A stretch of DNA of 64,000 bases from Clostridia bacterium. GTDB lineage: Bacteria; Bacillota; Clostridia; Oscillospirales; RGIG577. Location of the stretch: assembly GCA_017513095.1 (NCBI GenBank), contig JAFWDJ010000011.1, forward strand, positions 731 through 64,730, written 5' to 3'. How positions within the stretch are numbered: position 1 is the first letter of the stretch; each line of letters opens with the position of its first letter. Positions 17,701 to 56,410 of this stretch are shown piece by piece. Below the pieces are notes generated by a model. That model had not been told where the DNA came from, made no database searches, and saw only the letters and a program-made list of their open reading frames with translations. The position numbers were made by a program, and so were the translations under genes.

Positions 17701-20700
17701 AGGCTTCCGCCAAATCCCAAAAGACCGAGTCCGGTACCTATATCGTCGGTCATGTCCTTTGCTATCTGCTTAGCCTTGTCGAAGTCCTCGTCAAGCTCCT
17801 TATTGTATTCATCATATTTATTCTGCGGATCGCCGCCGCCATCGCCGCCATCGCCGCCGTTGTCGCACGGACCTCCGCTGCCTCCGGGAGGAGCGGGCGT
17901 CGGCATCGGGGGCGCGGACGGAGTCGGGAGATCGTCGTAATCATGGGTAAGAAGCTCCCCGGCTTCCGCTACCTTTTTGGCTGCCTGTAATTCGTCGATA
18001 TGTTCCTTGCCCCAGTTAATTATCGGACCGAACAAAGAACCAAGCCCGTCCGCGGACATCGTCTGCGCCTCTTCCCCTGCGTCTATAAGGGGCAGAGACA
18101 TTACGCCGAGGCCGCTTATTCTGGACGTATACGTCAACTCATCCGCGTTGATATCGACGTCAACTCTTATTTTAGCGGGCGTCCCGGACAAAAGTACGGT
18201 CGCAGCTTCATCTGTGTTAAGTGCAGGGTTTTGGTCCTTCCACTCGTAGTATATCTGATACTGCGCGCCGTCGGCCGTTTCAACGGCAGGCAGATACCAG
18301 CGGTTGTCGGGGCCGAAAAGGTCTTTCATTGCGGCCTCGAACTCTGCTTCGCCGTAATCGTAAAGCCCGTTTGCAACAAGCGATACGTACTTATCCCAGT
18401 CGGCTATCGCCTGATCCTGAATCTCCTGCGATTCGAAGGGCTTAAGCACAACTCCCCTGTCCGCGCTGTACGTATGTGCGTAGGGTGAGGGGTCTTCGTC
18501 CAAATCTATTTCCGCCACGGGGGCCGAAAGATCGGTCTCTTCCTCCCATTCTATCCAGAAGGCGCTTACGGGATGTATCGCGTCTCCCAGCTTTCCTTCT
18601 CCTTTAAAAGTATCCCCGTAACGAACAAGCTTTAACGTATCAAGCTCGCTTTCCGTATCGGCCTTTAAATATACCGCTTTAACTCTATCGGGATTATTGA
18701 ATGACACTGATGCCCATAAGTTTTGAAACGGTGATATCGTTAAATAGGAATGATCGAAAAGCGAATATCCGCATACATTTGCCGATTTAAGCGTGGGCGA
18801 GCCGTCATATACTACGGAAAAATACGCCTCTGCCGTTTCAAGCGGCTCGCTTTCACCCTCTCTTGAAACGCTTACCCTTGCTTTTCCTTCGTGTATCTTA
18901 TTTTCGGGGAATAAAGTTACGGTATACTTTCCCACAGGGCCGTAAAGCGCTATTGTTTTCTGCGTTCCGTCAACAACGCTTCCGTCGGGTCTTATCTCCT
19001 CGACGGTAAGTATATAATCATCGCCGGAGCCGCCGTACTTTGAAAGGTCAAACTCGGTAAATACAGAAATGCCTTGGCTTGCCGCATCCGTCTTTCTTAC
19101 CTTTGGATTATATATATCGGCTGAAAGCACGCTGTGATATGCAGCCGAAGAAGCTAACGGAACGGTAAATTCGCGGCCGTCAAAAGTAAGCTTTCGGAAA
19201 AACTGCGATACGGCGCCGTTTTCAAGCGCGTCGGCGGAGATATCATAGCTCAGATGCAGTACGTTAAGGTCAACGCCGTTGTCATTTATATAAACGGTAT
19301 TATCCTTTACCTCATAGGATACAGGCGCATTTCCCCATCCGGGCACTCTTGCAAGCGAAACGTTCTTTGCTCCGTCCGGCAGTATTACCATAGCCGACTG
19401 GTCTGAAACCTCACTGCTTCGCGAATATTGTATGGTGACTCGCGTTTTAACGCGGAAGGTATCCGCGGTCAAATACGATACCTCCGGGCCTGAGGAGAAT
19501 CCGTTCTCCGATTTATTTATGCGGTTCATAACGGGATCGTTTTCTATCAACAGTGTACCCGGATCGCTGCTTTGGGGCGTAACTTTTACGTATTCGCGCG
19601 AACTAAACAACCAGTACCGGGGATCTTCTCCGGCGTCTGTGTTCCATGTACCGACCACGAGGTAAGACACTCCGGGTATAAGATATACCTTTGTCTCGGA
19701 CAGCGTAGTCACCTCGTCGAATACTTTTTCGCCGGTCGACAGCGCATATACGATAATTCTTCGCGGCGTAAGATAATAATCGTCCGTCAAGGTGTTTATC
19801 TTTACCGTATACTCCGCGGCCGTCATTTTATCGACCGTTACGTTAATTTCATCGGGTACGCCCGCGGAACCCTTTGCAAGCGTAAACGTGCCCGTTCCCG
19901 AAAGACTGTAATCTTCGCCTATGCCGGATACGCTCAGCGTAACGGGAGTGCCCTTCGGAAGCTGAAGCGCGTTGAATAATACGCTTCCCTTCCCCGTCGG
20001 TGTATTCAGGGAGGCCGTGCTGTTGCCTATTCGGTAACAAAGCGATGAGGCGTCCGCGCTGCTCTGCCCGATGGGAATAAGGTTCCCGTCTTCCTCTATA
20101 AGCACGTTAACTTTAAGCTCAAGCGAACCCCTGAACGTGCGGTCAGCCTGTATCGTAACGCTCTGCGCGTCGAATGCTGCACTTGTATTCGCGTTTACAT
20201 AATACTCGCCGTCAACGCCCGTAGACGCGTCGTAGTCAATACTTGCGTAGAACGGCGAATGATTCACGCTCGTCCACGATACGGCAGCTTTGCCGTTTTC
20301 GTCGGTCGTTGCCTCTGCCATGGTATGGGACGACTTCAAATAGACAAAGCGGGCGTTAGGCGCAGGCTCTCCCAACTCGTTTTCGATATTTACCAAAATG
20401 GTGCGCGTCTCCTGACTCACTGTGTCAAGTACCGCCGTTTCAAGACGCAGAGCTTTACCGGTTGCGCCAAAGCTTAAAGTGCGCGGCTCCGCGCGAAGTG
20501 TGCCGTACTCGGTCTTGGCGTAGAACGCTTCCGTAGTTACTTTGACGTCTCCGTCCGTGCGCAGGGGAATTATTTCGGTATCCGTTTCATACCAGATGAC
20601 CTGTCCGCTTTCATTCGTAACGCCGCCGTGTCTTGAGTCGGTCGAAACCCTTACCCCCTCAATCGGGGTTCCCTGCTTATCGACAATCCTTAAGGCGAAC

Positions 20701-23700
20701 AGATACTTTTCGGCGGAGACGTTAACGGACGCGTTCGAGTACGATACCGTTATGTCCGTCCATCTGTAAAGCCTCAGTCCGTTTCCGTCTGTCAGAACGA
20801 GGGCGTAATCATCGCCCGCGGGCGCCGTGAACGTACACGTTCCCGTTTTGGCGGAAATTTCGCTTTGAGCGCTGAATCCGTTCCCCGTCAAGGTAAGACT
20901 CATACCGGAAACGTTTGTAAGCTCTGCGAAGTCGTAATTTACACTAAAGTCGACGGCGCGGTCGATGCGGTCGTTTAACTCTGCGGAAAGCTTCTCGCCC
21001 GAAGCGTCGGCCTCGAAGTATATCTTCGTTACGGCCGCGGCCTCGTCGGGGAGCGTAAAGGCCGCCGTCCACAATACGCCGCTTCCCTGCGCATCGCACG
21101 TAAGCTCGGTCGTACTGCCGTCGTTTAATTCAAGCGTAAGCTTCGCCGCCGCGCTCTGTATGCTTCCCGATACGTGCGCGTTCACGCTTATATCGGCGCC
21201 TTTCATACTGCCGAGCCTGTTCTTATCGTATGCGGCGGCAAGGCGGTTGACGCTCGGTTCGTTCGTAAGCGTGACCGATACGGCTTCGCTCTCCTGCGAG
21301 CGGTTGCCCGCCGCGTCAATAGCGCTCACCGTATACGTGCACGTCGTGCCGGGCTCTATGCCCAGGTGCGTATACATGCGCGTGCAGATGCGGGCAAGCT
21401 CCGTACCGTTGCACGTAAGAATATATGCGCTTACGGCCGTGTCATCCGTGCTTCTGCCCCACCTTAAGGAAACGCTGCCGTTCGTTTGAAGCTCTGCGGT
21501 AAGTCCTCCGGGTACGGTGGGAGGCGTCGTGTCGGACGCGGCGTCGATATTCGTGCCCGCGGTCGCTGCGGCGCTTACGGCGCCGTCGGCGTCGACGGAG
21601 TATATCGAATAATTATAGAAGCGTCCTCCGCTTAGCTGCGCATCGGTATACGTCGTGCCCTTTATGTTGTCGGCAATTATCTCGCCGTCGCGCGCGAGGC
21701 GGTAGTGGTCGCAGTCCTCAGACGCGGACGCCGTCCACGTAAGAACCGCCTTGCCCGAGGCGGGCACCGCCTTAAAATCGGTCGGCGGCAGAAGGATCGG
21801 CGACGCCGTCGATTCGCCCGTTACGGTAAAGAATACGCTTTCACTCTTAAACGGATTCGTTTGTCGGCCAAGCGTCTTTATCTCGGCCTTTGCGGTATAC
21901 GTTCCCGCCGCAAGGCCGGTAAACTCGGCCACTTCTTCCGTTATATATTTCTCGCTCGAGGCCACGGGCGTGTTCGTGGAGTCATAAACGGTTATCTTCA
22001 CTGTGGGCGTCTCTGCGTCATCGGCCGACTCAAGCGACGCCTCTGCCTCTTCAAGCTCGCCGTCCGGATCGTTCAAGTATGCAAAGTACACGGCCACGTT
22101 TTCGGCAGAGTCCTTTATTCCCGCGGCGATCCTTACGGTATCGCCGACCGCATACTGACTTTTTTCTACGTATATGCCCGCCGAAAGCTCCGTGGTTCCA
22201 ACGTATTTGCTTGTGCCGACGGTCGATTCGGGAGCTGCAAAGAAGTAGTATTCCGCATACTCGCCGTATGCCTCGTAATCGCGGAATCCTATATAAAGCT
22301 CTTCCTTTTCGCGGCAGTTCTGATATATCACGCGGTCAAACCCCGACCAGCCGAGTGTGTATTCAAGCGGTTCGTCGGGCGTCTCGTCAAACGCGAACCA
22401 GTACGCGGCGTCGGCGTACAGAGAATCCTCCTCCGGAGTCGAAAGCGTGAGTCCCGGGTTCTGTTCGTTAAACGCGATCTCAATCGTGACCGTCGCGCCC
22501 TCGGGCGTATTCGTAAGGTCGGCCGTCGCGCGTCCCATAAGGAGTGCGCCGTTGTCAACGCCGAATACCGCGACGTCGTATTTGCCGCCTACGGGGAGAT
22601 CGGCATAATACGAGCTGGTATTTGCGTCCGCGGATTCGTCCGCCGCGTCGGAGGCGCTGCTCGGGATAAAATACTCATCCGAATTCGCATATTCATACAC
22701 GAAATTGCGTATTTCGGGGTCGCCGTTCTCATCCTCAAGGTAAGCGTACACGCCGCCTCCGTACAGCTCGCCCATGTCGTAGCTGCCCTTATCGTTTTCG
22801 GTGATTAAAACGACCTTAACGCGTGCGGAAGGACGGCTTTCCTGCGGATTCATCGTATATTCAAGCGTGAAGCTGTCATTTCCGAGCCATCCGAGCGCGG
22901 ACTGGTTAAGCTCTAAAACGATGCGGTTTGGGCCCACGGGCGCGCTCGCATGGTTTTGCGTGAGAACGAACTCGGCAACGCCCTCCCCGTCGGGCTCGTA
23001 CGCGCCGCCCCTGCTGTAGCCGCGCATATTCCAAGTACCGCTTGCGGAGTCGTAATCCTCGTTATAGATACTGAAGCCGCCGTACGTCTCGGACGCGGTG
23101 CTGTTAAAGTCCTTCGTGCCGCTGTAATAGTATCCGTAATCGGTCACCGGGTTTCCTATGCTGTCGGTGAGCTTTAAGGAGAGCGTAAGGTCGCTCTGTC
23201 CGATTTTCGGGGACGCGGGCGTAAGAGTAAGATTTTCGGCCTTAAGCGGGCCCGCGCCGATTGAGAGCGACTTTGCGCCCGTAATCGTCTGCTTTCCCAA
23301 AGACACGCCGATATATCTGTCTCGCGGATTCACGAGGTATCCCGTTATCTCGTATTCACCCGGCGCGACGCTCACGCTTCCGCCCGCTGCGGGAAGCTCA
23401 AATACGGCGCCGTCGAGCGAGAGTAAAAGCCGGCTCGGCTGATACGTGCCCGAAGGCATAAGCGTTACCGTATTCGCGGACGCGAGATCTGCGTCAAGAT
23501 TCCATACGATATCGTCGTCGACCGTTTTCTTCAAAATATAGTCTTCGCCGCTCGCGCAAAGCGAAATCTCGGAGTCGCACGAAAGCGAGAACGAAGCGCT
23601 TGCGCTCTCGTCGAGCGTAACGAGCTCAAAGCTGCCCCCCGCGGTCATGGCGGTTATATTCGCGCCTTCGAACGCGTCGCTGCCCGTTACGGTCACGTTT

Positions 23701-25514
23701 ATGCTGTCGCTTAAATTTACGTTAAGATTCTTTGATATGCCGAAGCTCTGCAGCGTGATGCTCTTTATCGCGTAAAAGCCCTCGCCGGATACGAAGAGCG
23801 TGGCCGCTGCTTCGGGATTGCTTAAATCGAGGATGCATCTGCCCTTTGAATCGGCACGGGCACCCGTTTCCACGCCGTATTCGTCGACGATAAGAGCCGT
23901 TGCGCCCGTCGCGGGCTTATTGTCGGGGCCGAATACCGTAACGGTCACGGTATTTTCGGAGCGTATCACGTAAAACCTTCCGCATTCCTCAGAATTGGAC
24001 GCGGGCTGCTCCACAGATTGACCCATCGCGTCGGTAAATCGGCATTTCCATGAATAGAACGACTCGTCAAGCGCGCTCGTATCGAAGGACGCCTCTATAT
24101 ATTCGCGCTCGGTCCCGTTAAGCGTGACCTCGCCCAAAAGAATGTCGCCTGACGAGCTGTATACGTCGCTTGCGTATACGCTCATCGTCGCGGCTTTCGC
24201 TCCCGGGTTGTATAGTAAGCCGCCAAGCGTTATTTCATCCTTAAAAGCCTCCGTGCTTACGCCCGGATCGGTCGTAAAGAGTACGCCGCCGCTTCCCATG
24301 AGCGAAATGCCGTTCGCGTAGTCCGTGAGGAGATTGGACGCATTCTGCGAACGGTCGAACGCGGTCATAACGGGCGCCATGTCGGACGAGTTCGCCGCAG
24401 CTGAGCTCTTCAGCGCCGCCGTCATGCCCGAAAGCAGCGCGGCGGAGGCCGACGTACCCGTAAACGTCTCATACGAGCTGCCCGCGCCCGTGGTCAAAAG
24501 ATCGGTGCCGGGAAGCCAGAAGAAGCTTACGCCCAGGTCCGAGGAGCGTACAGGCTTATTCGACCACGACTCGTACGAATAATAGGTCGAGTTCTTTTTC
24601 GCGTTCTTATGCGAGCCCGCGCAAATAACGCCGCGAAGCGCCGCGGGGTAATAATTGTAGCCTGCCGTGGAGATCGAATTTCCGTCGTTTCCGGCGGCAG
24701 CTATAACGGTGCAGCCCTTCGAAATCGCGTAGTCGACCGACTCCTGCATCGCCGCGGGAGCCGATTTCATGCTCTGACCGAGCGAGAGGTTTATTATATC
24801 CGCGCCGTTATCGGCAGCATAGCGGATACCCGCGGCGATATTGGCCACGGTACCCTTGTCATTCTCGGAAAGAACTCTTACGGGCATCACAGATACGGGC
24901 ATTTTGCCCGCAATTCCCGCAATACCGATATTGTTGTCGGCGTTGGCGGCGATAAGTCCCGCAACCTTGGTGCCGTGCGACTCCAACGATACGTCGCTGT
25001 TTTCGTCGGCCGCTATCGCCTTATCCGAAACTATATCCCAGCCGTCAATAACGCGTCCCGAAAGGTCGGGATGCGCGCCGTTTATGCCGCTGTCAACGAC
25101 AGCAACTGTAACGGGCACGGCGCTTGCGAGATAATTCTCGTCAAGAAGCTGCCATGCGCTCTCGGCATTTATAATCGGGATGTACTGCTGATCGGAGTAC
25201 CTCTCGTCGTTATAGTAGCCGCAGGCTTCCATTACGGCATTCTCCGTAACGGATATTACATCGGGACGGCCCGCATAATCGGACGCGTCCCCGCCTGAAA
25301 CGAGAACTGTCCCCTCCCACAGCAGTCTGCCGCCGTTTACGTCTGCGAACGCCTGCGCGGCCGCCGAATCGGTAAACGTGACAATCCATTCGCCTGACGC
25401 GCCGCGGTCATCGGCAGACGCCGCCATTACGCCCATCGGAAGCATGGTCGCAATCATGGCGAGCGCAAGCAGAAGCCCCAGCGCCTTTTTGAACGATCTT
25501 TTCATTTCCGCCAC
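14781..25514 (-). CDS. Giant (3577 aa) secreted S8 subtilisin-like protease with multiple Ig-like/FN3/Big_2 domains and C-terminal SLH anchor
   Basis: - Single uninterrupted ORF with a GGAG RBS.
- Signal peptide: KKALGLLLALAMIATMLPMGVMAASA.
- S8 catalytic triad: VAVVDSGI (D, ~25095), HGTKVAG (H, ~24975), GTSASAA (S, ~24452).
- Two FN3 domains at ~21255-21795.
- Big_2 domain at ~16465-16710.
- Chitobiase-C-like Ig domain at ~15615-15850.
- Listeria-Bacteroides (Flg_new) repeat at ~15365-15570.
- Three SLH repeats at ~14784-15340. Confidence 0.9.
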   Translation of the reverse strand: MAEMKRSFKKALGLLLALAMIATMLPMGVMAASADDRGASGEWIVTFTDSAAAQAFADVNGGRLLWEGTVLVSGGDASDYAGRPDVISVTENAVMEACGYYNDERYSDQQYIPIINAESAWQLLDENYLASAVPVTVAVVDSGINGAHPDLSGRVIDGWDIVSDKAIAADENSDVSLESHGTKVAGLIAANADNNIGIAGIAGKMPVSVMPVRVLSENDKGTVANIAAGIRYAADNGADIINLSLGQSMKSAPAAMQESVDYAISKGCTVIAAAGNDGNSISTAGYNYYPAALRGVICAGSHKNAKKNSTYYSYESWSNKPVRSSDLGVSFFWLPGTDLLTTGAGSSYETFTGTSASAALLSGMTAALKSSAAANSSDMAPVMTAFDRSQNASNLLTDYANGISLMGSGGVLFTTDPGVSTEAFKDEITLGGLLYNPGAKAATMSVYASDVYSSSGDILLGEVTLNGTEREYIEASFDTSALDESFYSWKCRFTDAMGQSVEQPASNSEECGRFYVIRSENTVTVTVFGPDNKPATGATALIVDEYGVETGARADSKGRCILDLSNPEAAATLFVSGEGFYAIKSITLQSFGISKNLNVNLSDSINVTVTGSDAFEGANITAMTAGGSFELVTLDESASASFSLSCDSEISLCASGEDYILKKTVDDDIVWNLDADLASANTVTLMPSGTYQPSRLLLSLDGAVFELPAAGGSVSVAPGEYEITGYLVNPRDRYIGVSLGKQTITGAKSLSIGAGPLKAENLTLTPASPKIGQSDLTLSLKLTDSIGNPVTDYGYYYSGTKDFNSTASETYGGFSIYNEDYDSASGTWNMRGYSRGGAYEPDGEGVAEFVLTQNHASAPVGPNRIVLELNQSALGWLGNDSFTLEYTMNPQESRPSARVKVVLITENDKGSYDMGELYGGGVYAYLEDENGDPEIRNFVYEYANSDEYFIPSSASDAADESADANTSSYYADLPVGGKYDVAVFGVDNGALLMGRATADLTNTPEGATVTIEIAFNEQNPGLTLSTPEEDSLYADAAYWFAFDETPDEPLEYTLGWSGFDRVIYQNCREKEELYIGFRDYEAYGEYAEYYFFAAPESTVGTSKYVGTTELSAGIYVEKSQYAVGDTVRIAAGIKDSAENVAVYFAYLNDPDGELEEAEASLESADDAETPTVKITVYDSTNTPVASSEKYITEEVAEFTGLAAGTYTAKAEIKTLGRQTNPFKSESVFFTVTGESTASPILLPPTDFKAVPASGKAVLTWTASASEDCDHYRLARDGEIIADNIKGTTYTDAQLSGGRFYNYSIYSVDADGAVSAAATAGTNIDAASDTTPPTVPGGLTAELQTNGSVSLRWGRSTDDTAVSAYILTCNGTELARICTRMYTHLGIEPGTTCTYTVSAIDAAGNRSQESEAVSVTLTNEPSVNRLAAAYDKNRLGSMKGADISVNAHVSGSIQSAAAKLTLELNDGSTTELTCDAQGSGVLWTAAFTLPDEAAAVTKIYFEADASGEKLSAELNDRIDRAVDFSVNYDFAELTNVSGMSLTLTGNGFSAQSEISAKTGTCTFTAPAGDDYALVLTDGNGLRLYRWTDITVSYSNASVNVSAEKYLFALRIVDKQGTPIEGVRVSTDSRHGGVTNESGQVIWYETDTEIIPLRTDGDVKVTTEAFYAKTEYGTLRAEPRTLSFGATGKALRLETAVLDTVSQETRTILVNIENELGEPAPNARFVYLKSSHTMAEATTDENGKAAVSWTSVNHSPFYASIDYDASTGVDGEYYVNANTSAAFDAQSVTIQADRTFRGSLELKVNVLIEEDGNLIPIGQSSADASSLCYRIGNSTASLNTPTGKGSVLFNALQLPKGTPVTLSVSGIGEDYSLSGTGTFTLAKGSAGVPDEINVTVDKMTAAEYTVKINTLTDDYYLTPRRIIVYALSTGEKVFDEVTTLSETKVYLIPGVSYLVVGTWNTDAGEDPRYWLFSSREYVKVTPQSSDPGTLLIENDPVMNRINKSENGFSSGPEVSYLTADTFRVKTRVTIQYSRSSEVSDQSAMVILPDGAKNVSLARVPGWGNAPVSYEVKDNTVYINDNGVDLNVLHLSYDISADALENGAVSQFFRKLTFDGREFTVPLASSAAYHSVLSADIYNPKVRKTDAASQGISVFTEFDLSKYGGSGDDYILTVEEIRPDGSVVDGTQKTIALYGPVGKYTVTLFPENKIHEGKARVSVSREGESEPLETAEAYFSVVYDGSPTLKSANVCGYSLFDHSYLTISPFQNLWASVSFNNPDRVKAVYLKADTESELDTLKLVRYGDTFKGEGKLGDAIHPVSAFWIEWEEETDLSAPVAEIDLDEDPSPYAHTYSADRGVVLKPFESQEIQDQAIADWDKYVSLVANGLYDYGEAEFEAAMKDLFGPDNRWYLPAVETADGAQYQIYYEWKDQNPALNTDEAATVLLSGTPAKIRVDVDINADELTYTSRISGLGVMSLPLIDAGEEAQTMSADGLGSLFGPIINWGKEHIDELQAAKKVAEAGELLTHDYDDLPTPSAPPMPTPAPPGGSGGPCDNGGDGGDGGGDPQNKYDEYNKELDEDFDKAKQIAKDMTDDIGTGLGLLGFGGSLLGDATLSQKDNVIDSLYDAQKKHLQDINNALKDLDPDGGGGGGGGSNPDCDPPNGKQPPAGGANSTAPRSNNSLIDPSGTVYEVNTANTLSGVKASLYYYNGSVPAGFDESNAEWQSEYWQTLPAWSEEGAWTLWNSTDYGQPENPLSTDADGHYGWDVLAGAWKVVFEKAGYLPAESMVLPVPPPHLDVDINMTSTGTPAVTEVRADKNGEVIYITFDKYMTLDSLKGDGSVRIFFGDTELSGEITAADATVTAEGAKQTPTEGGAQSGVTVGREFIYAIDQTAFDPLPVGASFRVTIDGEVSCYNGMALGAKYDSGLLTVPEKNPTPPVTAIAFADYENENMTVGDSADLSAKIVLTGGDGSEAITWSTNDAEVASVDANGKVTAVSEGTATIFAECGGLSAARGVVVVRGPVTADPANNKVEFCRSDNIVVDKRCWMWSVADNYDLEGKVEGDTKFIPVSWQITEDGVVMAGAELAESETTVVTPYYPKTDGATAVGSITYQEYRYNGVSWKPVGSPVTVTNTRVVAQVTGLALKTPPAKQTVGEPLKLSDMVLNISLSDGTVSEAPYEKIEKYGITYSIEPGTVLTENDTTLTLTHTTTGITLDVSLMEEPASAAAPVISPAGGTFQNSTTVTIASATEGAKIYYTVDGSAPDENSTPYAAPFAISDTTTVKAVAFADGLKPSTVTTAVFTKQSGSGGGGGGSSGKSSFRITFDTDGGIAMDSVVVSGGKVDLSKYVPVRDGYEFDGWYSDKELTKPITAPITISSNTTVYAKWTEKTEPSGGLPFVDVSEGQWFYGDVKYVYENGLMVGTDETHFSPDLKTTRGMIVTVLYRLAGSPEVTGECPFDDVGSLSYCRDAVTWAAENGVVTGYNEKTFGPDDTITREQMATIIYRYVKLSGGGFEGAWSMRLDFDDAGDISDWAFEAVSWCCMNGIITGMDENTLNPQGSATRAQTAAILHRFIELMNEA

Positions 25515-45040: not shown

Positions 45041-45805
45041 ATGCTCCTCGCTATCGACGCCGGCAACTCCAATATCGTTGTCGGTCTCATTGAAAACGAC
45101 GAAATAATCAAGGTCTTTCGGGTCTCCACTGATACGAGCAAGACGGAGGACGAATATCTCATATCGTTCCGCCAGCTTATGGACGTGGGCGGCGTCGATT
45201 ATAAAAAGATTGACGGCGCCATAATCTGCTCCGTAGTGCCGCCCATAAAATCGGCGCTCACGGGAGCCGTGAAAATGATGACCGGCGTCGATCCGCTCAT
45301 CGTAAGCGCGCAGCTCAACACGGGACTCAACATAGACATAGACAATCCCGCGCAGCTCGGAAGCGACCTCATTGCCGACGCGGTAGCCGCGGTAAACGAC
45401 TATCCGCTGCCCGCCATTGTCTTTGACATGGGCACCGCGACGACGATATCGGTCATAGACAGAAACTCACGCTATCTCGGCGGAGTTATCATGCCGGGAC
45501 TGAGGCTTTCCTTAAACGCGTTAAGCTCCAACACGTCCCAGCTTCCCAAGGTGTCCATAGAAGCACCCGAAAGCTGCATCGGGCGGAATACCGTTGACTG
45601 CATGAAGAGCGGCAGCATCTTCGGCGCGGCGTCGATGATGGACGGCATGATAGAAAGAATCGAGGACGAATTGGGCGAAAAGGCCACGGTCATTGCAACG
45701 GGCGGCCTCGCGCAGTACGTAGTTGCCGAATGCAGAAGAAACGTAATCTGCGACGACAACCTTTTGCTTCGCGGCCTCAATAAGTTATACCGCATGAACA
45801 AATAA
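45041..45805 (+). CDS. coaX: Type III pantothenate kinase
   Basis: MLLAIDAGNSNIVVGL and DMGTATT motifs; 254 aa. Confidence 0.92.
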   Translation: MLLAIDAGNSNIVVGLIENDEIIKVFRVSTDTSKTEDEYLISFRQLMDVGGVDYKKIDGAIICSVVPPIKSALTGAVKMMTGVDPLIVSAQLNTGLNIDIDNPAQLGSDLIADAVAAVNDYPLPAIVFDMGTATTISVIDRNSRYLGGVIMPGLRLSLNALSSNTSQLPKVSIEAPESCIGRNTVDCMKSGSIFGAASMMDGMIERIEDELGEKATVIATGGLAQYVVAECRRNVICDDNLLLRGLNKLYRMNK

Positions 45806-50910: not shown

Positions 50911-51514
50911 ATATTGCGTCGTCTCTTGTCCATTTAAGGAACGTCTTATGCGACACGCCGAGCTTGACAGCCGCCTTTCTTGCCGACATTTTCCCGTTCT
51001 GCCACAGTATGAGCATATCGTCGTAGCGCGCCGGACGCCTTTTCGGCCTTCTGCCGAACTTTACGCCGTTCGCATGGGCCGCCGCAATCCCCTCCCTCTG
51101 CCGCTTACGAATAAATTCGCGCTCCGTCTGCGCAACATAGCTTAGAAGCTCCAACACGATGTCCGCGATGAGCGTGCCCGTAAGGTCGCGGTCCTTGTGC
51201 GTGTCTAAAAGCGGCATATCGAGCACGACTATCGCCGCGCTTTTTTCCTTCGTGATAATGCGCCATTGTTCGAGTATTTCAAGGTAGTTTCTCCCCAGAC
51301 GGTCAATGCTTTTTATCACAAGCGTATCGTTCGGGCGAAGCTTGTTTATAACGCGCTTATAGCCCTTTCTGTCAAAATCCTTCCCCGACTGCCTGTCCGA
51401 AAAAATATTCCCCTCCTCTACGCCGTATTCGCGCAGCGCGGCAAGCTGCCTGTCCTCGTTCTGATCGCGCGACGATACGCGCATATAGCCGTAAATGCAG
51501 GTCTTCCTTTTCAT
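50909..51514 (-). CDS. Small serine recombinase (resolvase/invertase family)
   Basis: The start was moved to the ATG at 51514 (MKRKTCIYGYMRVSSRDQNEDRQ), with an AGGAGG RBS. The catalytic Ser motif is YxRVSS. The C-terminal HTH is MSARKAAVKLGVSHKTFLKW. Length is 201 aa. Confidence 0.85.
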   Translation of the reverse strand: MKRKTCIYGYMRVSSRDQNEDRQLAALREYGVEEGNIFSDRQSGKDFDRKGYKRVINKLRPNDTLVIKSIDRLGRNYLEILEQWRIITKEKSAAIVVLDMPLLDTHKDRDLTGTLIADIVLELLSYVAQTEREFIRKRQREGIAAAHANGVKFGRRPKRRPARYDDMLILWQNGKMSARKAAVKLGVSHKTFLKWTRDDAI

Positions 51515-51674
51515 AATAAATCCTCCTTTGATAAAGCAGTATTTAGAGACCATTTTATACCGCAAGGCCGACAAATTTCCGCGCCGAACTTCTTGCATTA
51601 TTCACATATTTTTACTTTAAAACGGCGCGTTTTGTGCGGTTTTCACCGAAAAGAAAAAATCGGCGCAAAATGTA

Positions 51675-51703
51675 TTGACATTGATATTTGCGGCCGCTAT
51701 AAT
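51675..51703 (+). promoter_or_regulatory. Perfect consensus sigma-A promoter
   Basis: TTGACA-17 nt-TATAAT. Confidence 0.7.
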
Positions 51704-51721
51704 GCGAATTGTAAGACAAAG

Positions 51722-51756
51722 GCGTTTTTAAGCAATCTGCTTGAAAACGCTTTTTT
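51722..51756 (+). terminator. Leader terminator 1
   Basis: GCGTTTTTAAGCA-ATC-TGCTTGAAAACGC (13 bp, 1 mismatch) followed by TTTTTT, about 12 nt after the predicted start site. Confidence 0.65.
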
Positions 51757-51793
51757 GCTTTAAACTCATATTAGCTGCGCGCGGCAAGACAAT

Positions 51794-51834
51794 GGCGTCT
51801 TTGGGATATTCCACCCCCCAAAGACGCCGTTTTT
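51794..51834 (+). terminator. Leader terminator 2
   Basis: GGCGTCTTTGGG-11 nt loop-CCCAAAGACGCC followed by GTTTTT. Confidence 0.65.
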
Positions 51835-51858
51835 GAGTTTAAAGGGCTTACGTTAAAA

Positions 51859-51915
51859 AGGCAAAGGCGCCGTGATACCGTTTTTTCGTATCAGGCGCCT
51901 TTGCCTATATTTTTT
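51859..51915 (+). terminator. Leader terminator 3
   Basis: AGGCAAAGGCGCC...GGCGCCTTTGCCT with an inner TGATAC/GTATCA hairpin, followed by ATATTTTTT. Confidence 0.6.
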
Positions 51916-51961
51916 GAAAACGCCGTACTTTTACGGCAGAGAATCTGAGGAGATGATAAAA

Positions 51962-53722
51962 ATGGATGAAGTAATGAGAGAATTGATTTCGGCGACCGCG
52001 TCCGAACAGCTTTTCGGCGTGTGGTTCCTCATCGGAGCCGCGCTCGTATTCTGGATGCAGGCCGGATTCGCAATGGTAGAGGCCGGATTTACGCGGGCGA
52101 AGAACACGGGCAACATCATAATGAAGAACCTTATGGACTTCTGTATCGGCACCGTGGTATTTATACTTATAGGCTTCGGCCTTCTCATGGGCGAGGACGC
52201 CATGGGCTTTATCGGAAAGCCGGGCTTCGATCTGTTCACGTCGTACGCGGACTTTGATTTTTCAAGCTTCGTATTCAACCTCGTATTCTGCGCAACGACC
52301 GCAACGATAGTTTCCGGCGCAATGGCCGAACGCACGAAGTTCTTATCCTACTGCATCTATTCGGCCGTGCTCTCGGCGCTCATATACCCCATCGAGGCGC
52401 ACTGGATATGGGGCGGCGGCTGGCTTATGCAGGCGGGCTTTCACGATTTCGCGGGCTCCTGCGCAATACATATGGTCGGCGGCATTTCGGCGCTCATCGG
52501 CGCGAAGATTTTAGGCCCGCGCATAGGAAAGTTCACGCGTGACAAAAAAGGCCGCGTCACTAAGGTAAACGCCTTCCCCGGCCACAACATCGCGCTTGGC
52601 GCGCTCGGCGTTTTCATACTCTGGCTCGGCTGGTACGGCTTCAACGGCGCCGCTGCGACGACCGTGGAGCAACTCGGCTCGATATTCTTAACAACGACGG
52701 TCGCACCCGCCGTCGCAACCGTTGTATGCATGATATTTACATGGATAAAGTACGGCAAGGTCGACGTTTCGATGTGCCTTAACGCCTCGCTTGCGGGACT
52801 CGTTGCGATAACCGCGGGATGCGACGCCGTATCCGCGCTCGGCGCGGCCGTTATAGGCGGTATCGCGGGCCTTCTCGTCGTGTTCGGCGTATGGCTTCTT
52901 GACCATAAGCTGCGCATAGACGACCCCGTCGGAGCCGTGGCCGTCCACGGTTTAAACGGTATTTGGGGCACTCTCGCCGTGGGACTCTTCGCAACGAGCG
53001 ACGCGCCCGGATACTCGATCGCGAACGCGTCGGGCGAAACGCTCACAGGCCTCTTCTACGGCGGCGGCTTTGAGCTTTTAGGGCTTCAGGCTTTGGGCTT
53101 TTTGGCCGTGGCTGCATGGACCGCCGTCACGATAACCGTGATTTTCCTCGTTATAAAGAGCGTGCTCGGCCTTCGCGCATCGAAGGAAGAGGAGCTTTCG
53201 GGACTTGACGCGGCGGAGCACGGCCTTCCCTCGGCTTACGCGGGCTTCGCGATGCTTCCCGACTACGTTGACGAAGGCGCGCCCGCTCCCGTTATCGTTT
53301 CGGGCGACGTTCCCGTTGCCGAGGCCGTTACGGTAAGAAAGATGCCCGTATTCGACGACGGCTCGCCAAAGTTCACGAAGGTCGAGATAATCTGCAAGGA
53401 GTCGCGCTTCGAGACTTTAAAGAACGCGCTCATGGACATAGGCATAACGGGCATGACCGTGTCGCACGTTTTGGGCTGCGGACTTCAGAAGGGCAAGCCC
53501 GAGTTCTACCGCGGCGTACAGTTAGAAGCGACGCTGCTGCCTAAAATTCAGATAGACATCGTTGTAAGCCGCGTACCTGTAAGAAGCGTCATCGAAACTG
53601 CGAAGAAGGTGCTTTACACGGGCCACATCGGCGACGGAAAGATATTCGTCTACGACGTTGAGAACGTCGTAAAGGTGCGCACGGGCGAAGAAGGCTACGA
53701 CGCGCTTCAGGACGTGGAGTAA
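51962..53722 (+). CDS. amt: Ammonium transporter fused to a C-terminal P-II (GlnB/GlnK) domain
   Basis: The start was moved to the ATG at 51962 (MDEVMREL), 9 nt after GAGGAG. The upstream part of the track ORF overlaps leader terminator 3. The Amt signature is FWMQAGFAMVEAGF. The last ~110 aa form a P-II fold (TKVEIICKESRFETLKNALMDIGITGMTVSHVLGCG...). Confidence 0.88.
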   Translation: MDEVMRELISATASEQLFGVWFLIGAALVFWMQAGFAMVEAGFTRAKNTGNIIMKNLMDFCIGTVVFILIGFGLLMGEDAMGFIGKPGFDLFTSYADFDFSSFVFNLVFCATTATIVSGAMAERTKFLSYCIYSAVLSALIYPIEAHWIWGGGWLMQAGFHDFAGSCAIHMVGGISALIGAKILGPRIGKFTRDKKGRVTKVNAFPGHNIALGALGVFILWLGWYGFNGAAATTVEQLGSIFLTTTVAPAVATVVCMIFTWIKYGKVDVSMCLNASLAGLVAITAGCDAVSALGAAVIGGIAGLLVVFGVWLLDHKLRIDDPVGAVAVHGLNGIWGTLAVGLFATSDAPGYSIANASGETLTGLFYGGGFELLGLQALGFLAVAAWTAVTITVIFLVIKSVLGLRASKEEELSGLDAAEHGLPSAYAGFAMLPDYVDEGAPAPVIVSGDVPVAEAVTVRKMPVFDDGSPKFTKVEIICKESRFETLKNALMDIGITGMTVSHVLGCGLQKGKPEFYRGVQLEATLLPKIQIDIVVSRVPVRSVIETAKKVLYTGHIGDGKIFVYDVENVVKVRTGEEGYDALQDVE

Positions 53723-53730
53723 AATATGAA

Positions 53731-53773
53731 AAAAAGAGGCGGCGTCCGGGGAAATCCCGGCGCCGCCTTTTTT
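53731..53773. terminator. Bidirectional terminator after amt
   Basis: The stem is GAGGCGGCG(T)CCGGG-GAAAT-CCCGGCGCCGCCT, with an A-run on the left and a T-run on the right. Confidence 0.8.
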
Positions 53774-53819
53774 GAGCCGTGCCTTTATCCTTGCGGGGGC
53801 GGATTATACTTTAAGCCGC

Positions 53820-53966
53820 TTACGCCCGCGAAGCCGTAATAATCATTATCTGCGAATGCGGGTATTGCGCTTTAAGTATCTTTTCCGCGTCGTACTGCGA
53901 ATTCGCGCTCACGATCTGCTCCGTAACGCGGCCGTTGACCGTGAATTTTATTCTGAAGCTCTGCAC
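53820..53966 (-). CDS. 48-aa conserved small protein, paralogue 1 (not in ORF track; GTG start)
   Basis: GGAGGTGAAAAC precedes the GTG start. The translation is (M)QSFRIKFTVNGRVTEQIVSANSQYDAEKILKAQYPHSQIMIITASRA. It is the same length as the ORF at 55253-55399 and 26/48 residues are identical. 15 of the identical residues use different synonymous codons. Confidence 0.7.
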   Translation of the reverse strand: MQSFRIKFTVNGRVTEQIVSANSQYDAEKILKAQYPHSQIMIITASRA

Positions 53967-54114
53967 GTTTTCACCTCCCCGCGGCTTTATACACCGTCCG
54001 AACGGCCCGCCGTACTCCCCGGACCGTTCGCGCCGAAATCTGCGTGTAGTGTCTTACGCTTATATTATATCACGTTTTAAGCAAAATTGCCGTATATGTT
54101 AAAATTTTTTTAGA

Positions 54115-55155
54115 CTATATCTCGTCAGCGAAGCCGAAATAATCAGCAAGCGCGATAATCTCGTCCGTCCTGCCGAATTTCTTTGCGGCGTACTTATAAT
54201 ACTTCATATCATACGGATTGAGCCTTATGACGTTTACGAAAGCGCTTTTTATCTTATCCTCGGGGAATCCCGCCGAGGTGAGATTTTTAAATACGTTTTC
54301 GGCGCTTTTTATCTCCGCCTCCCCGGGCAGAACGATATCGACGCCGTTTTCTATAAGCAGCTCGACAAGCGTACCGTGAACGAAAAAGTAATCCGAAAAT
54401 ACGTGAAGCATAAGCTCGGCGGCGTCGACAGCTGCGAACATCGCCTCTTTCTGTTCCTTCGAGACGCCTATCCTCTCCTTATGACCGCTCACCATGCCGT
54501 CGGCTATCTGCCCGTAGAGATTTCCGAAGGCGCCGCCTGCATTCCTCGTTTTATATCGGTCTGCGGCCATCGTGAGAATTGCCGTGGACAAATTGTTTTT
54601 GTTGCCTTCCGCGGCTTTGTTTCCCGCTGAAACAACCGTCTCGTAGTCGGATATCGCGCTGCGGAAGCGCGCCTTATGCTTGGCAGTTAAGGTCTCCGCG
54701 GAAACAGAAAACACGTTTTCCGAAAACAGCGTATCCATCGCGTATTTTATGAGCGGATACAGGTATTCGTCGTAAATACCCGGGAAACCTTCGATAAAGC
54801 TTACGTAGTCGCGCACCGTCGCGCCGTATTTTTCCGCCGCTTTTTGGGTGCACTCGCGGGCGAGCAGATAAAACTGCTTTCGATAGGCGTTAAAGACGTC
54901 CATTTCGGCGGGCACCTCGATATTTTCTCCGAACAGCTCGAGCGTCACCGCTTTTCCCGTCGGTCTTTCGGGCTTTTTTATAAGCGCGGCGTTATCCTTC
55001 GTTTCTTTCGGTATGCTTGTCCCAAGGTCAAATTCCTGCTTTAAAACGTATCCGTTTGCGTCGGATGCGTCCTGACGTGACGCCTTTCCCGCTTTATTTA
55101 CGTATTCGCTTCCGGCCTTCTTCGCGCCGTCAATATATTTTCCAAACAATCCCAT
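54115..55155 (-). CDS. 346-aa hypothetical protein (no recognisable family)
   Basis: GGAGGTG RBS. The N-terminus is Lys/Ala/Gly-rich, and the remainder looks helical. Confidence 0.7.
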   Translation of the reverse strand: MGLFGKYIDGAKKAGSEYVNKAGKASRQDASDANGYVLKQEFDLGTSIPKETKDNAALIKKPERPTGKAVTLELFGENIEVPAEMDVFNAYRKQFYLLARECTQKAAEKYGATVRDYVSFIEGFPGIYDEYLYPLIKYAMDTLFSENVFSVSAETLTAKHKARFRSAISDYETVVSAGNKAAEGNKNNLSTAILTMAADRYKTRNAGGAFGNLYGQIADGMVSGHKERIGVSKEQKEAMFAAVDAAELMLHVFSDYFFVHGTLVELLIENGVDIVLPGEAEIKSAENVFKNLTSAGFPEDKIKSAFVNVIRLNPYDMKYYKYAAKKFGRTDEIIALADYFGFADEI

Positions 55156-55252
55156 ACTTTATCACCTCCGTGAAAATGAGGCCCCCGATTTATAAAAGAA
55201 CAATTATAAACCGGAGGTGATTCTTTGTTTCGTGCCGCTTGCGTGAAAGTTT

Positions 55253-55399
55253 TTAAATCTTCACAGTTGCTATAAAAGAGATTTTCGAATTCGGATACTG
55301 CGCCTTAATCAGCTTCTCGGCGTCAAACTTTGACTGAGCTCTCACTATCTGCTCCGTTTGTCGTCCGTCCACTCTGAACTTAATCTTAAATGTATACAT
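55253..55399 (-). CDS. 48-aa conserved small protein, paralogue 2
   Basis: This is the internal ATG of the track ORF 55253..55531, preceded by GGAGGTGAAAGA. The translation is MYTFKIKFRVDGRQTEQIVRAQSKFDAEKLIKAQYPNSKISFIATVKI. Confidence 0.7.
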   Translation of the reverse strand: MYTFKIKFRVDGRQTEQIVRAQSKFDAEKLIKAQYPNSKISFIATVKI

Positions 55400-55457
55400 T
55401 CTTTCACCTCCTTTGGCGAAGCGGCCCCTTGCCGTATGCCGCCTCTTTTTTCTTGTT

Positions 55458-55673
55458 TCATCTTGAGCAAAACGGGCGAAGTACGCACCCCGGGCATGCG
55501 AGCGTAAAACCGTTTTCATCCTTTTTCCCATACTGACAGCCCGCGCTGCCCATAAGGTCCTTTTTTTCGTCGCGTCTGTCCATCTTCTCGGTAATCCTGT
55601 TTGCTATCGCGGCGCCTACTGCGATGCGAAGAATATCGCCGAAAAAGCCCGAGCTTCTGTTATAGTCCGACAT
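55458..55673 (-). CDS. 71-aa hypothetical protein with C-terminal four-Cys knuckle
   Basis: The GGGAGG RBS overlaps the stop of the upstream XRE gene. The N-terminus is amphipathic (GFFGDILRIAVGAAIANRI). The C-terminus is CQYGKKDENGFTLACPGCVLRPFC, i.e. CX13CX2CX5C. Confidence 0.6.
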   Translation of the reverse strand: MSDYNRSSGFFGDILRIAVGAAIANRITEKMDRRDEKKDLMGSAGCQYGKKDENGFTLACPGCVLRPFCSR

Positions 55674-55679
55674 AATATA

Positions 55680-55910
55680 TCAACCTCCCGCCGCCGCATG
55701 ACTTTGTCTCTCGCCTCGAACGTCGATAAAAAGCTCGGGGCTTACGTTTAAGGCAAGACATATTTCTCTTAATTCGTCCGCATAAAGCGTGCGTCTGCCG
55801 CTTAGCATCGCATTCAGATCCGTCTGCGATATCCCCGACTTTTCGGCAACGGCAACACGCTTTAACCCGTTTTCATCAATATACGTGCTTACCCTCTCGT
55901 ACACTTTCAT
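55680..55910 (-). CDS. XRE-family HTH transcriptional regulator (76 aa)
   Basis: HTH_3 pattern: LKRVAVAEKSGISQTDLNAMLSGRRTL. Confidence 0.8.
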   Translation of the reverse strand: MKVYERVSTYIDENGLKRVAVAEKSGISQTDLNAMLSGRRTLYADELREICLALNVSPELFIDVRGERQSHAAAGG

Positions 55911-55926
55911 TTCATCACCCGTTATA

Positions 55927-55970
55927 ACAGTATTGCTGTATTTAATTAGATAGTATCACAGTTTTTCTGT
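55927..55970. promoter_or_regulatory. Two ACAG-N5-CTGT palindromic operators in the divergent XRE promoter region
   Basis: ACAGTATTGCTGT is at 55927-55939 and ACAGTTTTTCTGT is at 55958-55970. Their centres are 31 bp apart. The second fills the -35/-10 spacer of the minus-strand promoter. Confidence 0.55.
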
Positions 55971-55978
55971 ATTATCAA
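55950..55978 (-). promoter_or_regulatory. Promoter of the minus-strand cassette operon
   Basis: The minus strand reads TTGATA-17 nt-TACTAT with an extended TG. Confidence 0.5.
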
Positions 55979-56010
55979 GACTTTTTTACACGATTTCAAA
56001 AGTATTTTTC

Positions 56011-56038
56011 TTTACTTTCCAGATTTTAAAGGTATAAT
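56011..56038 (+). promoter_or_regulatory. Promoter of the plus-strand XRE gene
   Basis: TTTACT-16 nt-TATAAT. Confidence 0.5.
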
Positions 56039-56061
56039 ATACAAAGAGAGGTGATTTCGGC

Positions 56062-56379
56062 TTGCGAAAATATGAGATTGGCGACAGGATAAGAAAATAT
56101 CGTGAGGCTCGCGGCTTGACCCAAAGGCAGCTTGCCGAGATGCTGGGTGTGACAGGCAGCAGAATCTCGAATTGGGAGCAGGGAACGAACCGACCTGACG
56201 CGGATATGCTGTCCGATTTATGCAGGGCTCTTAAAGTTTCCCCGAGCGTCATGCTCGACGTCAGGCTCACCGAAGACGACTTTACCGAGCGGGAGCGAAA
56301 GATTATCTACGCGTACCGCAGCAGCCCTAAGGTGCAGCATGCCATCGACATTCTATTGGGCCTTGACGACAATATATAA
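56062..56379 (+). CDS. XRE-family HTH transcriptional regulator (105 aa)
   Basis: TTG start after AGAGGTGA. The HTH_3 is IRKYREARGLTQRQLAEMLGVTGSRISNWEQG. Confidence 0.8.
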   Translation: MRKYEIGDRIRKYREARGLTQRQLAEMLGVTGSRISNWEQGTNRPDADMLSDLCRALKVSPSVMLDVRLTEDDFTERERKIIYAYRSSPKVQHAIDILLGLDDNI

Positions 56380-56382
56380 TAG

Positions 56383-56410
56383 AAAAACGGCGGATTATTC
56401 CGCCGTTTTT
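56383..56410. terminator. Bidirectional terminator between the XRE gene and cobC
   Basis: AAAAACGGCGG-ATTATT-CCGCCGTTTTT. The cobC stop codon lies in the loop. Confidence 0.75.

Follow-up and report, generated by a model that had tools for sequence, protein, structure and literature searches.

The 64-kb stretch of Clostridia bacterium DNA analysed here (the window) contains a gene for a fusion of the ammonium transporter Amt with PII, and this report concerns the leader in front of that gene. The amt-PII start codon is an ATG at 51962, preceded by the ribosome-binding site (RBS) GAGGAG at 51947-51952. The same fusion is widespread among Clostridia homologues, while an exact match to the window protein, taken with two alternative starts, is not on record. 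In the leader of 250 nucleotides (nt), a sigma-70 promoter is followed by three predicted terminators (T1, T2 and T3). We observed that each of these carries on its 5' shoulder a small hairpin with a loop of six nucleotides (a hexaloop) of the type recognized by ANTAR-domain antiterminators (modules 1, 2 and 3). The features are listed in Table 1.

Table 1. Features of the amt-PII locus, by position in the window
Feature	Position	Strand	Details
Sigma-70 promoter TTGACA-17-TATAAT	51675..51703	+	12/12 consensus; -35 = 51675-51680, -10 = 51698-51703
Module 1 mini-hairpin AAGAC-AAAGGC-GUUUU	51713..51728	+	loop 51718-51723; overlaps T1 5' strand by 11 nt; ~0 kcal/mol alone
Predicted terminator T1	51718..51756	+	stem 51718-51754, U-tract 51751-51756; -20.2 kcal/mol, z = -6.4
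Outer helix (11 bp) around module 2 and T2	51758-51768 pairs with 51834-51844	+	in the minimum-free-energy fold of the leader
Module 2 mini-hairpin AAGAC-AAUGGC-GUCUU	51786..51801	+	loop 51791-51796; overlaps T2 5' strand by 11 nt; -2.4 kcal/mol alone
Predicted terminator T2	51791..51834	+	stem 51791-51831, U-tract 51830-51834; -25.0 kcal/mol, z = -7.9
Predicted terminator T3	51859..51915	+	stem 51859-51906, then AUA and U6 (51910-51915); -33.3 kcal/mol, z = -8.5
Module 3 mini-hairpin GGC-AAAGGC-GCC	51860..51871	+	loop 51863-51868; 12-nt overlap with T3; -2.8 to -4.2 kcal/mol alone
Amt-PII fusion gene	51962..53722	+	586 aa; Pfam: PF00909 residues 20-422 (3.4e-119), PF00543 residues 472-576 (8e-24)
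Bidirectional terminator ending amt-PII	53725..53781	both	-33.5 kcal/mol plus, -27.5 kcal/mol minus; hexaloop module absent

The original prediction had described a perfect promoter followed by three hairpins with U-tracts ahead of amt, and both parts of this were confirmed. Folded singly, T1, T2 and T3 each beat 200/200 shuffles, and the fold of the whole leader has a z-score of -8.8. The promoter had also been called the best in the window; it is indeed a perfect match, but it ties with a second perfect TTGACA-17-TATAAT on the minus strand (9291-9263), where shuffles give an expectation of zero such sites. Transcription would start at ~51710, as deduced from the promoter position, so a transcript ending at T1 would be ~42-47 nt long, in keeping with the ~47 nt first proposed. 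The distance from the end of T3 to the ATG came to 46-47 nt (given earlier as 47 nt). An operator dyad for TnrA/GlnR (TGTNA-N7-TNACA) was not seen near the promoter on inspection by eye only, with no formal test.

We then examined the mini-hairpins. All three have a hexaloop with A at position 1 and G at position 4 (A1 and G4) on a C-G closing pair, as ANTAR-type recognition hairpins do. Each mini-hairpin and its terminator are mutually exclusive, sharing 11-12 nt of the terminator 5' strand. When all three mini-hairpins were forced to form, the terminators vanished from the fold and the energy of the leader changed from -107 to -57.5 kcal/mol, a cost of ~50 kcal/mol. Since the mini-hairpins are worth 0 to about -4 kcal/mol and the terminators -20 to -33 kcal/mol, the default state would be OFF, and a stabilising factor would be required to change it. 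Among the A1-loop matches on both strands of the window (128 kb), no intergenic ones other than modules 1-3 lay on a strong terminator, the mirror image in T3 aside. One other A1 match (45374, minus strand) forms a weaker hairpin inside the open reading frame (ORF) for pantothenate kinase (45041-45805), and the leftover loose hexaloop matches have G at loop position 1 and weak hairpins.

The T3 sequence AGGCAAAGGCGCC (51859-51871; AAGGCAAAGGCGCC) agrees with the GnfR consensus CAGGCAANGGCGCC at 12 of the 13 specified positions, with only the first C differing. This consensus was described for glnK/amtB and nif leaders (PMC2995071). In Geobacter sulfurreducens, polymerase passage through the terminator of the nifH leader depends on GnfR, a REC-ANTAR protein that binds RNA containing CAGGCAAGGGCGCC (Ueki and Lovley 2010, PMC2995071). 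The Geobacter GnfK/GnfR system, whose targets include glnK and amtB, uses the same RNA element, GGC-AANGGC-GCC, placed 5' of and overlapping an intrinsic terminator and read by an ANTAR-domain regulator. There is likewise one element per terminator, and the window leader has this same arrangement of a single element overlapping each terminator in front of a nitrogen gene. Modules 1 and 2 retain CAANGGCG, with covarying stems. The two systems also differ. The host here is a Clostridia bacterium and not Geobacter; the window leader has three modules in series, and modules 1 and 2 have AAGAC/GUYUU stems in place of GGC/GCC. The Geobacter promoters are RpoN-dependent and activated by GnfL/GnfM, whereas the window promoter is a consensus sigma-70 promoter, and because of this, control in the window appears to rest on attenuation alone.

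T3 itself is a near-perfect palindrome, and its minus strand also scores as a terminator. Owing to the palindrome, the motif AGGCAAAGGCGCC can be read on the minus strand of T3 as well (51906-51894). This 13-mer occurs in the 64-kb window in T3 only, once per strand, and T3 as a dispersed repeat was ruled out by this confinement. Searches of metagenome contigs with the T3 sequence, and with the promoter plus module 1, gave zero exact matches.

To place the leader among its relatives, we compared 80 loci encoding Amt-PII proteins of 66-85% identity, from Lachnospiraceae, Ruminococcaceae/Oscillospirales, other Clostridia and a few other bins. Hexaloop hairpins of the A..G.. kind, with a stem of 3 bp or more, were present on 65 of 103 terminators upstream of amt (63%), against 103/1067 control terminators (10%; Fisher p = 3e-34). 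The comparison is conservative, since the control terminators come from the same loci and include true modules of other nitrogen genes. The 5' shoulders of the related upstream terminators were nearly always aGC-AAAGGC-GCu-like or GAGC-AAUGGA-GCUU-like, and the loop class AANGGC with its variants predominates across the 80 loci.

The pairing of the stem was assessed with sites anchored on CAANGNNG only, that is, blind to pairing. The three pairs outside the closing pair were complementary at 86%, 84% and 74% of the upstream sites, compared to 39-41% elsewhere, and this anchored test is the unbiased pairing statistic. We also built an alignment of 70 modules (A2), curated by hand and eye from the sites found with the anchor motif; padding fills the two outermost columns, the data are in columns 2-21 and the structure tested is in columns 4-19. 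Two-sided changes were seen at four of the five pairs (for example G-C, A-U, C-G and U-A at a single position). A2 had a covariation score of 0.68, as against 0.25 for shuffles (0/500 reached the observed value) and 0.10-0.16 for slid partners. As the anchor CAANGNNG already specifies the C-G closing pair, finding that pair constant in A2 adds no independent evidence; the pair next to it is only ever G-C, A-U or G.U.

Within 450 nt of amt-PII, we found one module at 41 of the 80 loci, two at 21 and three at none, while 18 loci were without a module. Several of these 18 have amt directly 3' of a gene for type III glutamine synthetase (GSIII), and in this arrangement the module lies 5' of the GSIII gene. 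About 35 of the 62 module-bearing related leaders have TTGAC(A/T/G) with a TAnnnT -10 element that ends 5-15 nt (mostly 8-13 nt) 5' of the first mini-hairpin. These promoters are near-consensus (TTGACA-17-TAnnnT), and the spacing in the window, 9 nt from the -10 element to the module 1 mini-hairpin, is within the same pattern. Because this spacing recurs in ~35 relatives and the window fits it, a perfect promoter firing into a terminator is the design of the family, with strong constitutive initiation and control on elongation.

The leader family is not uniform, as some lineages have a second hexaloop in the terminator loop. The leaders of L016, L032, L035, L038, L045 and L064 carry a hexaloop CCAC-(A/G)AAGCU-GUGG within the terminator loop and not on the shoulder. 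In L035, it follows the shoulder hairpin AAAAAG-ACGGUA-CUUUUU by 6 nt, which gives an adjacent dual hexaloop in an order reversed with respect to that of EutV. Five loci binned as Parabacteroides, Treponema, Bacteroidaceae and Alistipes (L054, L070, L071, L072 and L078) have the same module, of the GCAC-AAUGGC-GUGC type. Its presence in these non-Clostridia bins reflects either horizontal transfer of gene and leader or mis-binning.

The closest relatives, L081 and L082, encode an Amt-PII that is 90% identical to that of the window, in the same gene order (AAA, VWA, resolvase, amt-PII, cob genes). Both leaders retain the promoter, modules 1 and 2, T1 (-16.0 kcal/mol) and T2 (-21.2 kcal/mol). 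In module 1 of L081 a G.U pair of the stem has become A-U. In module 2 the stem is identical and the loop is AACGGC, the sole change (U to C) being at loop position 3, where the family as a whole varies. The outer helix, whose 3' arm begins at the final U of the T2 U-tract, is kept in both relatives with one pair altered on both sides (C-G to U-A); in L081 an A-U pair has also become G.U. Both relatives are without a segment of ~60 nt (roughly 51845-51905) that contains T3, from which we conclude that T3 is a lineage-specific addition. The conservation of the hairpins, which the original prediction had proposed as a check, is thus seen in L081 and L082 for T1 and T2 but not for T3. Just 5' of the amt RBS, the window also has a 6-bp hairpin without a U-tract, GCCGUA-CUUU-UACGGC (51924-51939), and L081 has a different hairpin at this place.

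The same module was observed at other nitrogen genes of related contigs. In L083 it lies 5' of gdh, of GSIII and of the glutamate synthase (GOGAT) operon, and in L084 it lies 5' of GSIII (two modules) and of a GOGAT-glnA operon. This GOGAT-glnA operon, in L084 and L085, ends in a gene for a protein of 194 amino acids with a REC-like and an ANTAR domain (12000-12584 in L084). The ANTAR domain of the L084 protein scores 50.9 bits against PF03861 (cut-off 27.3), and the protein is homologous to Rv1626 (1e-11), EutV and AmiR. Its receiver-like domain is under the Pfam cut-off and carries Asn at the place of the phospho-acceptor Asp of Rv1626, so that, in contrast to GnfR with its phosphorylatable REC domain, the L084 regulator has a pseudo-receiver. 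The contig is Lachnospira-related, and the ANTAR gene follows that for a short glutamine synthetase (GS) of 404 amino acids. The pseudo-receiver and the co-transcription with glutamine synthetase invite the speculation that the regulator may be controlled by a partner protein and not by phosphorylation, as in the AmiC-AmiR pair.

We consider it probable (about 0.8) that the amt-PII leader is a three-stage attenuator read by an ANTAR antiterminator of the GnfR/NitR kind. A multi-checkpoint antitermination leader controlling ammonium uptake was one of the two readings in the original prediction, and it is supported by conserved, covarying hairpins that overlap the terminators and by their distribution at nitrogen genes in many Clostridia. 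In such a leader, the near-ideal promoter would fire constitutively. By default, the polymerase would stop at T1 (after ~45 nt), and those that escape would stop at T2 and then at T3. An inducing signal, presumably nitrogen limitation, would lead an activated ANTAR protein to bind the nascent mini-hairpin on each terminator shoulder, with its stem of 3-5 bp, its C-G closing pair and its hexaloop A-A-N-G-G-C. The bound hairpin would hold 11-12 nt of the terminator 5' strand, so that no terminator forms and the polymerase reaches amt-PII. Three stages in series would multiply the termination efficiencies, so that basal expression would be very low and the response steep.

Systems of this kind, also in association with amt, are already known, whereas the serial layout of single hexaloops and the presence of three stages are uncommon. 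The ANTAR target described by Ramesh et al. (2012) combines A1/G4 hexaloops and conserved closing pairs with an overlap of the terminator base; A1, G4 and the closing pairs are the determinants for EutV (PMC3369931). The EutV/EutW system of the eut genes in Enterococcus faecalis thus shares with the window an A1/G4 hexaloop mini-hairpin that excludes the terminator through overlap with its 5' base. The eutP closing pairs (AC...GU) are as in modules 1 and 2, and the EutV regulon, like the window leader, has several terminators. The difference is that EutV uses two hairpins with one terminator, while the window has a single hexaloop per terminator, with the units in series, and the loop AANGGC is far more constrained in the window family than the EutV loops are. 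NasR/nasF and AmiR/amiE also share the essential A1/G4 hexaloop and the nitrogen theme, and their antiterminators are controlled by a ligand or partner and not by phosphorylation, as may hold for the window. Their leaders have one terminator with two hairpins, and the sensor domains (NIT, or sequestration by AmiC) differ.

In Firmicutes, covariance-model ANTAR matches were listed 5' of ammonium transporter and PII genes, including Cthe_1499 of C. thermocellum and amt-PII units of D. acetoxidans (PMC3369931, Table S2). An AmtB-PII fusion is present in C. thermocellum, where a REC-ANTAR gene adjoins the GS-GOGAT cluster (NitR / Clo1313_2030, PMC4676874). These cases concern the same class of gene, with an ANTAR regulator encoded together with GS/GOGAT; the Table S2 entries differ in being covariance-model predictions of dual hairpins, whose leader architecture was undescribed. 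In the literature searched, we found no experimental study of these leaders.

Several observations weigh against reading by an ANTAR protein. EutV requires two hairpins 5-12 nt apart, and a longer linker abolishes antitermination (PMC3369931, PMC8934654). In the window, no A..G.. hexaloop partner lies 2-16 nt 5' of any module, so the EutV-type dual form is not seen. Module 1 begins ~3 nt from the deduced 5' end, which leaves no room for an upstream partner, and the nearest other hexaloop is ~72 nt off, behind another terminator. The only candidate on the 3' side is a weak 3-bp hairpin, GAA-AACGCU-UUU (loop near 51745), which follows module 1 within the 3' strand and U-tract of T1. Among the relatives, an upstream partner at 2-16 nt was seen for 6 of 62 modules, against a background of 5.7%. 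An ANTAR domain was absent from the 30 window ORFs scanned, and in this organism the regulator is therefore a presumed one. Rfam 15 gave no match in the whole window at gathering thresholds; with E <= 10, the region 51500-52100 gave only spurious microRNA and small RNA (sRNA) matches far under threshold. Finally, T3 at -33 kcal/mol faces a mini-hairpin of 3 bp, and efficient antitermination there is uncertain. The original prediction had identified no ANTAR dual hexaloop by eye, and as regards the canonical adjacent pair this stands, but all three terminators do carry an ANTAR-type hexaloop hairpin. It had also reported no glutamine riboswitch or T-box, and the Rfam scan agrees with this.

Two other kinds of control were considered and rejected. 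No curated Rfam model for a riboswitch, T-box or glutamine riboswitch matches the leader, and leader-peptide attenuation was set aside as the leader sequence has no small ORF preceded by an RBS.

On the number of hairpins, Walshe et al. (2022) reported that the ANTAR dimer contacts one hexaloop at a time and that the minimal binding motif is a single hexaloop; the role of single hexaloops in antitermination was left open by these authors (PMC8934654). The Geobacter sites appear to be natural single-hexaloop cases, and so do the present leaders. We tentatively suggest, as a possibility short of an even chance, that gut and rumen Clostridia use a distinct ANTAR mode, with serial single-hexaloop attenuators at the extreme 5' end of a transcript made constitutively. 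The reader would be a NitR-like pseudo-receiver protein, with Asn for the phospho-acceptor Asp, whose activity is set not by phosphorylation but by a partner such as the co-transcribed GS or PII. If true, this would be natural evidence that one hexaloop suffices for co-transcriptional antitermination, and the window leader with its three modules would stand as the extreme case among those found.

The other reading in the original prediction was an abundant stand-alone sRNA of ~45 nt ending at T1, with T2 and T3 as back-up insulators and amt transcribed from its own promoter. A perfect promoter with T1 immediately after it is what such an sRNA would have, and an RNA of ~45 nt would accumulate when the gene is repressed. 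We nevertheless regard this as very improbable, as the stretch from T3 to the amt start codon contains nothing resembling a promoter, and a conserved, covarying hairpin that destroys the terminator would be purposeless in a constitutive sRNA. Conservation lies in the antiterminator hairpins and in the way they overlap the terminator, while the loop and stem sequence of T1 is conserved among close relatives only. Moreover, the same layout of promoter and module stands directly 5' of amt-PII, gdh, GSIII and GOGAT in many genomes. The short RNA ending at T1 is most readily explained as a by-product of attenuation. The CAANGGCG hairpins could instead be read by a factor other than an ANTAR protein, such as an RNA-binding protein linked to PII or GS, or could belong to an RNA that senses a small molecule; control would still be by antitermination. 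The absence of an ANTAR gene among the window ORFs scanned, the departure from the canonical dual hexaloop and the lack of an Rfam match all fit such a factor. Against it, the motif is that of the experimentally bound GnfR site, with the A1, G4 and closing-pair determinants of EutV and NasR, and an ANTAR gene lies in a module-bearing nitrogen operon of a relative. A hairpin of 16 nt is too small for a metabolite aptamer, and apart from the mini-hairpin and terminator nothing in the leader is conserved across families. A non-ANTAR reader is therefore improbable, though less so than the sRNA.

A narrower alternative concerns T3. Only modules 1 and 2 may be regulatory, with T3 being a passenger, a palindromic insertion acting as a fixed partial terminator or insulator that lowers amt expression. 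Its absence from the syntenic relatives with 90% identity and the lack of three modules at any of the 80 loci point this way, as do its near-perfect palindrome, which scores as a terminator on both strands, and the weakness of a 3-bp mini-hairpin against a stem of -33 kcal/mol. However, the 5' strand AGGCAAAGGCGCC fits the GnfR consensus at all specified positions but the first, and the 13-mer is found window-wide in T3 only. The mini-hairpin is also rightly positioned to keep the lowest 12 bp of the terminator stem from forming, and its GGC/GCC stem is that of the Geobacter sites. On balance, we think a passenger T3 unlikely, while giving it more weight than either a non-ANTAR reader or an sRNA.

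Read as a three-stage attenuator, the leader accounts for an ideal promoter running into three stop signals as ordinary attenuation of ammonium uptake, and each terminator gets a concrete recognition element. A GnfR-type motif characterised in Geobacter only is in wide use among Lachnospiraceae, Oscillospirales and allied Clostridia of the gut and rumen, where it stands 5' of amt-PII, gdh, GSIII and GOGAT. The sequence rule CAANGGCG on a terminator shoulder can serve for annotation of the nitrogen regulon in poorly studied Clostridia. The serial single-hexaloop design bears on whether one hexaloop supports co-transcriptional antitermination, and it may also be of use in synthetic biology as a tight, multiplicative OFF switch.

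The 5' neighbour of amt-PII is a divergent serine resolvase gene on the minus strand (50909 to ~51515), which is part of the conserved synteny and not a recent arrival. On the 3' side, the region of ~2.7 kb between amt-PII and a cobC-like gene (53772-56395) is absent from L081 and L082. It holds an ORF of 346 amino acids (54115-55155, minus strand) and smaller ORFs, none of which has a Pfam match. The second perfect promoter of the window (9291-9263) lies ~130 nt 5' of a gene for a PALP-family enzyme (9115-8186, minus strand). Its leader, up to 9115, contains the hairpin CTATAAAAACACTATGTTTTATAGG, for which there was no Rfam match. Elsewhere in the window, a single ORF of 3577 amino acids occupies 14781-25514 on the minus strand.

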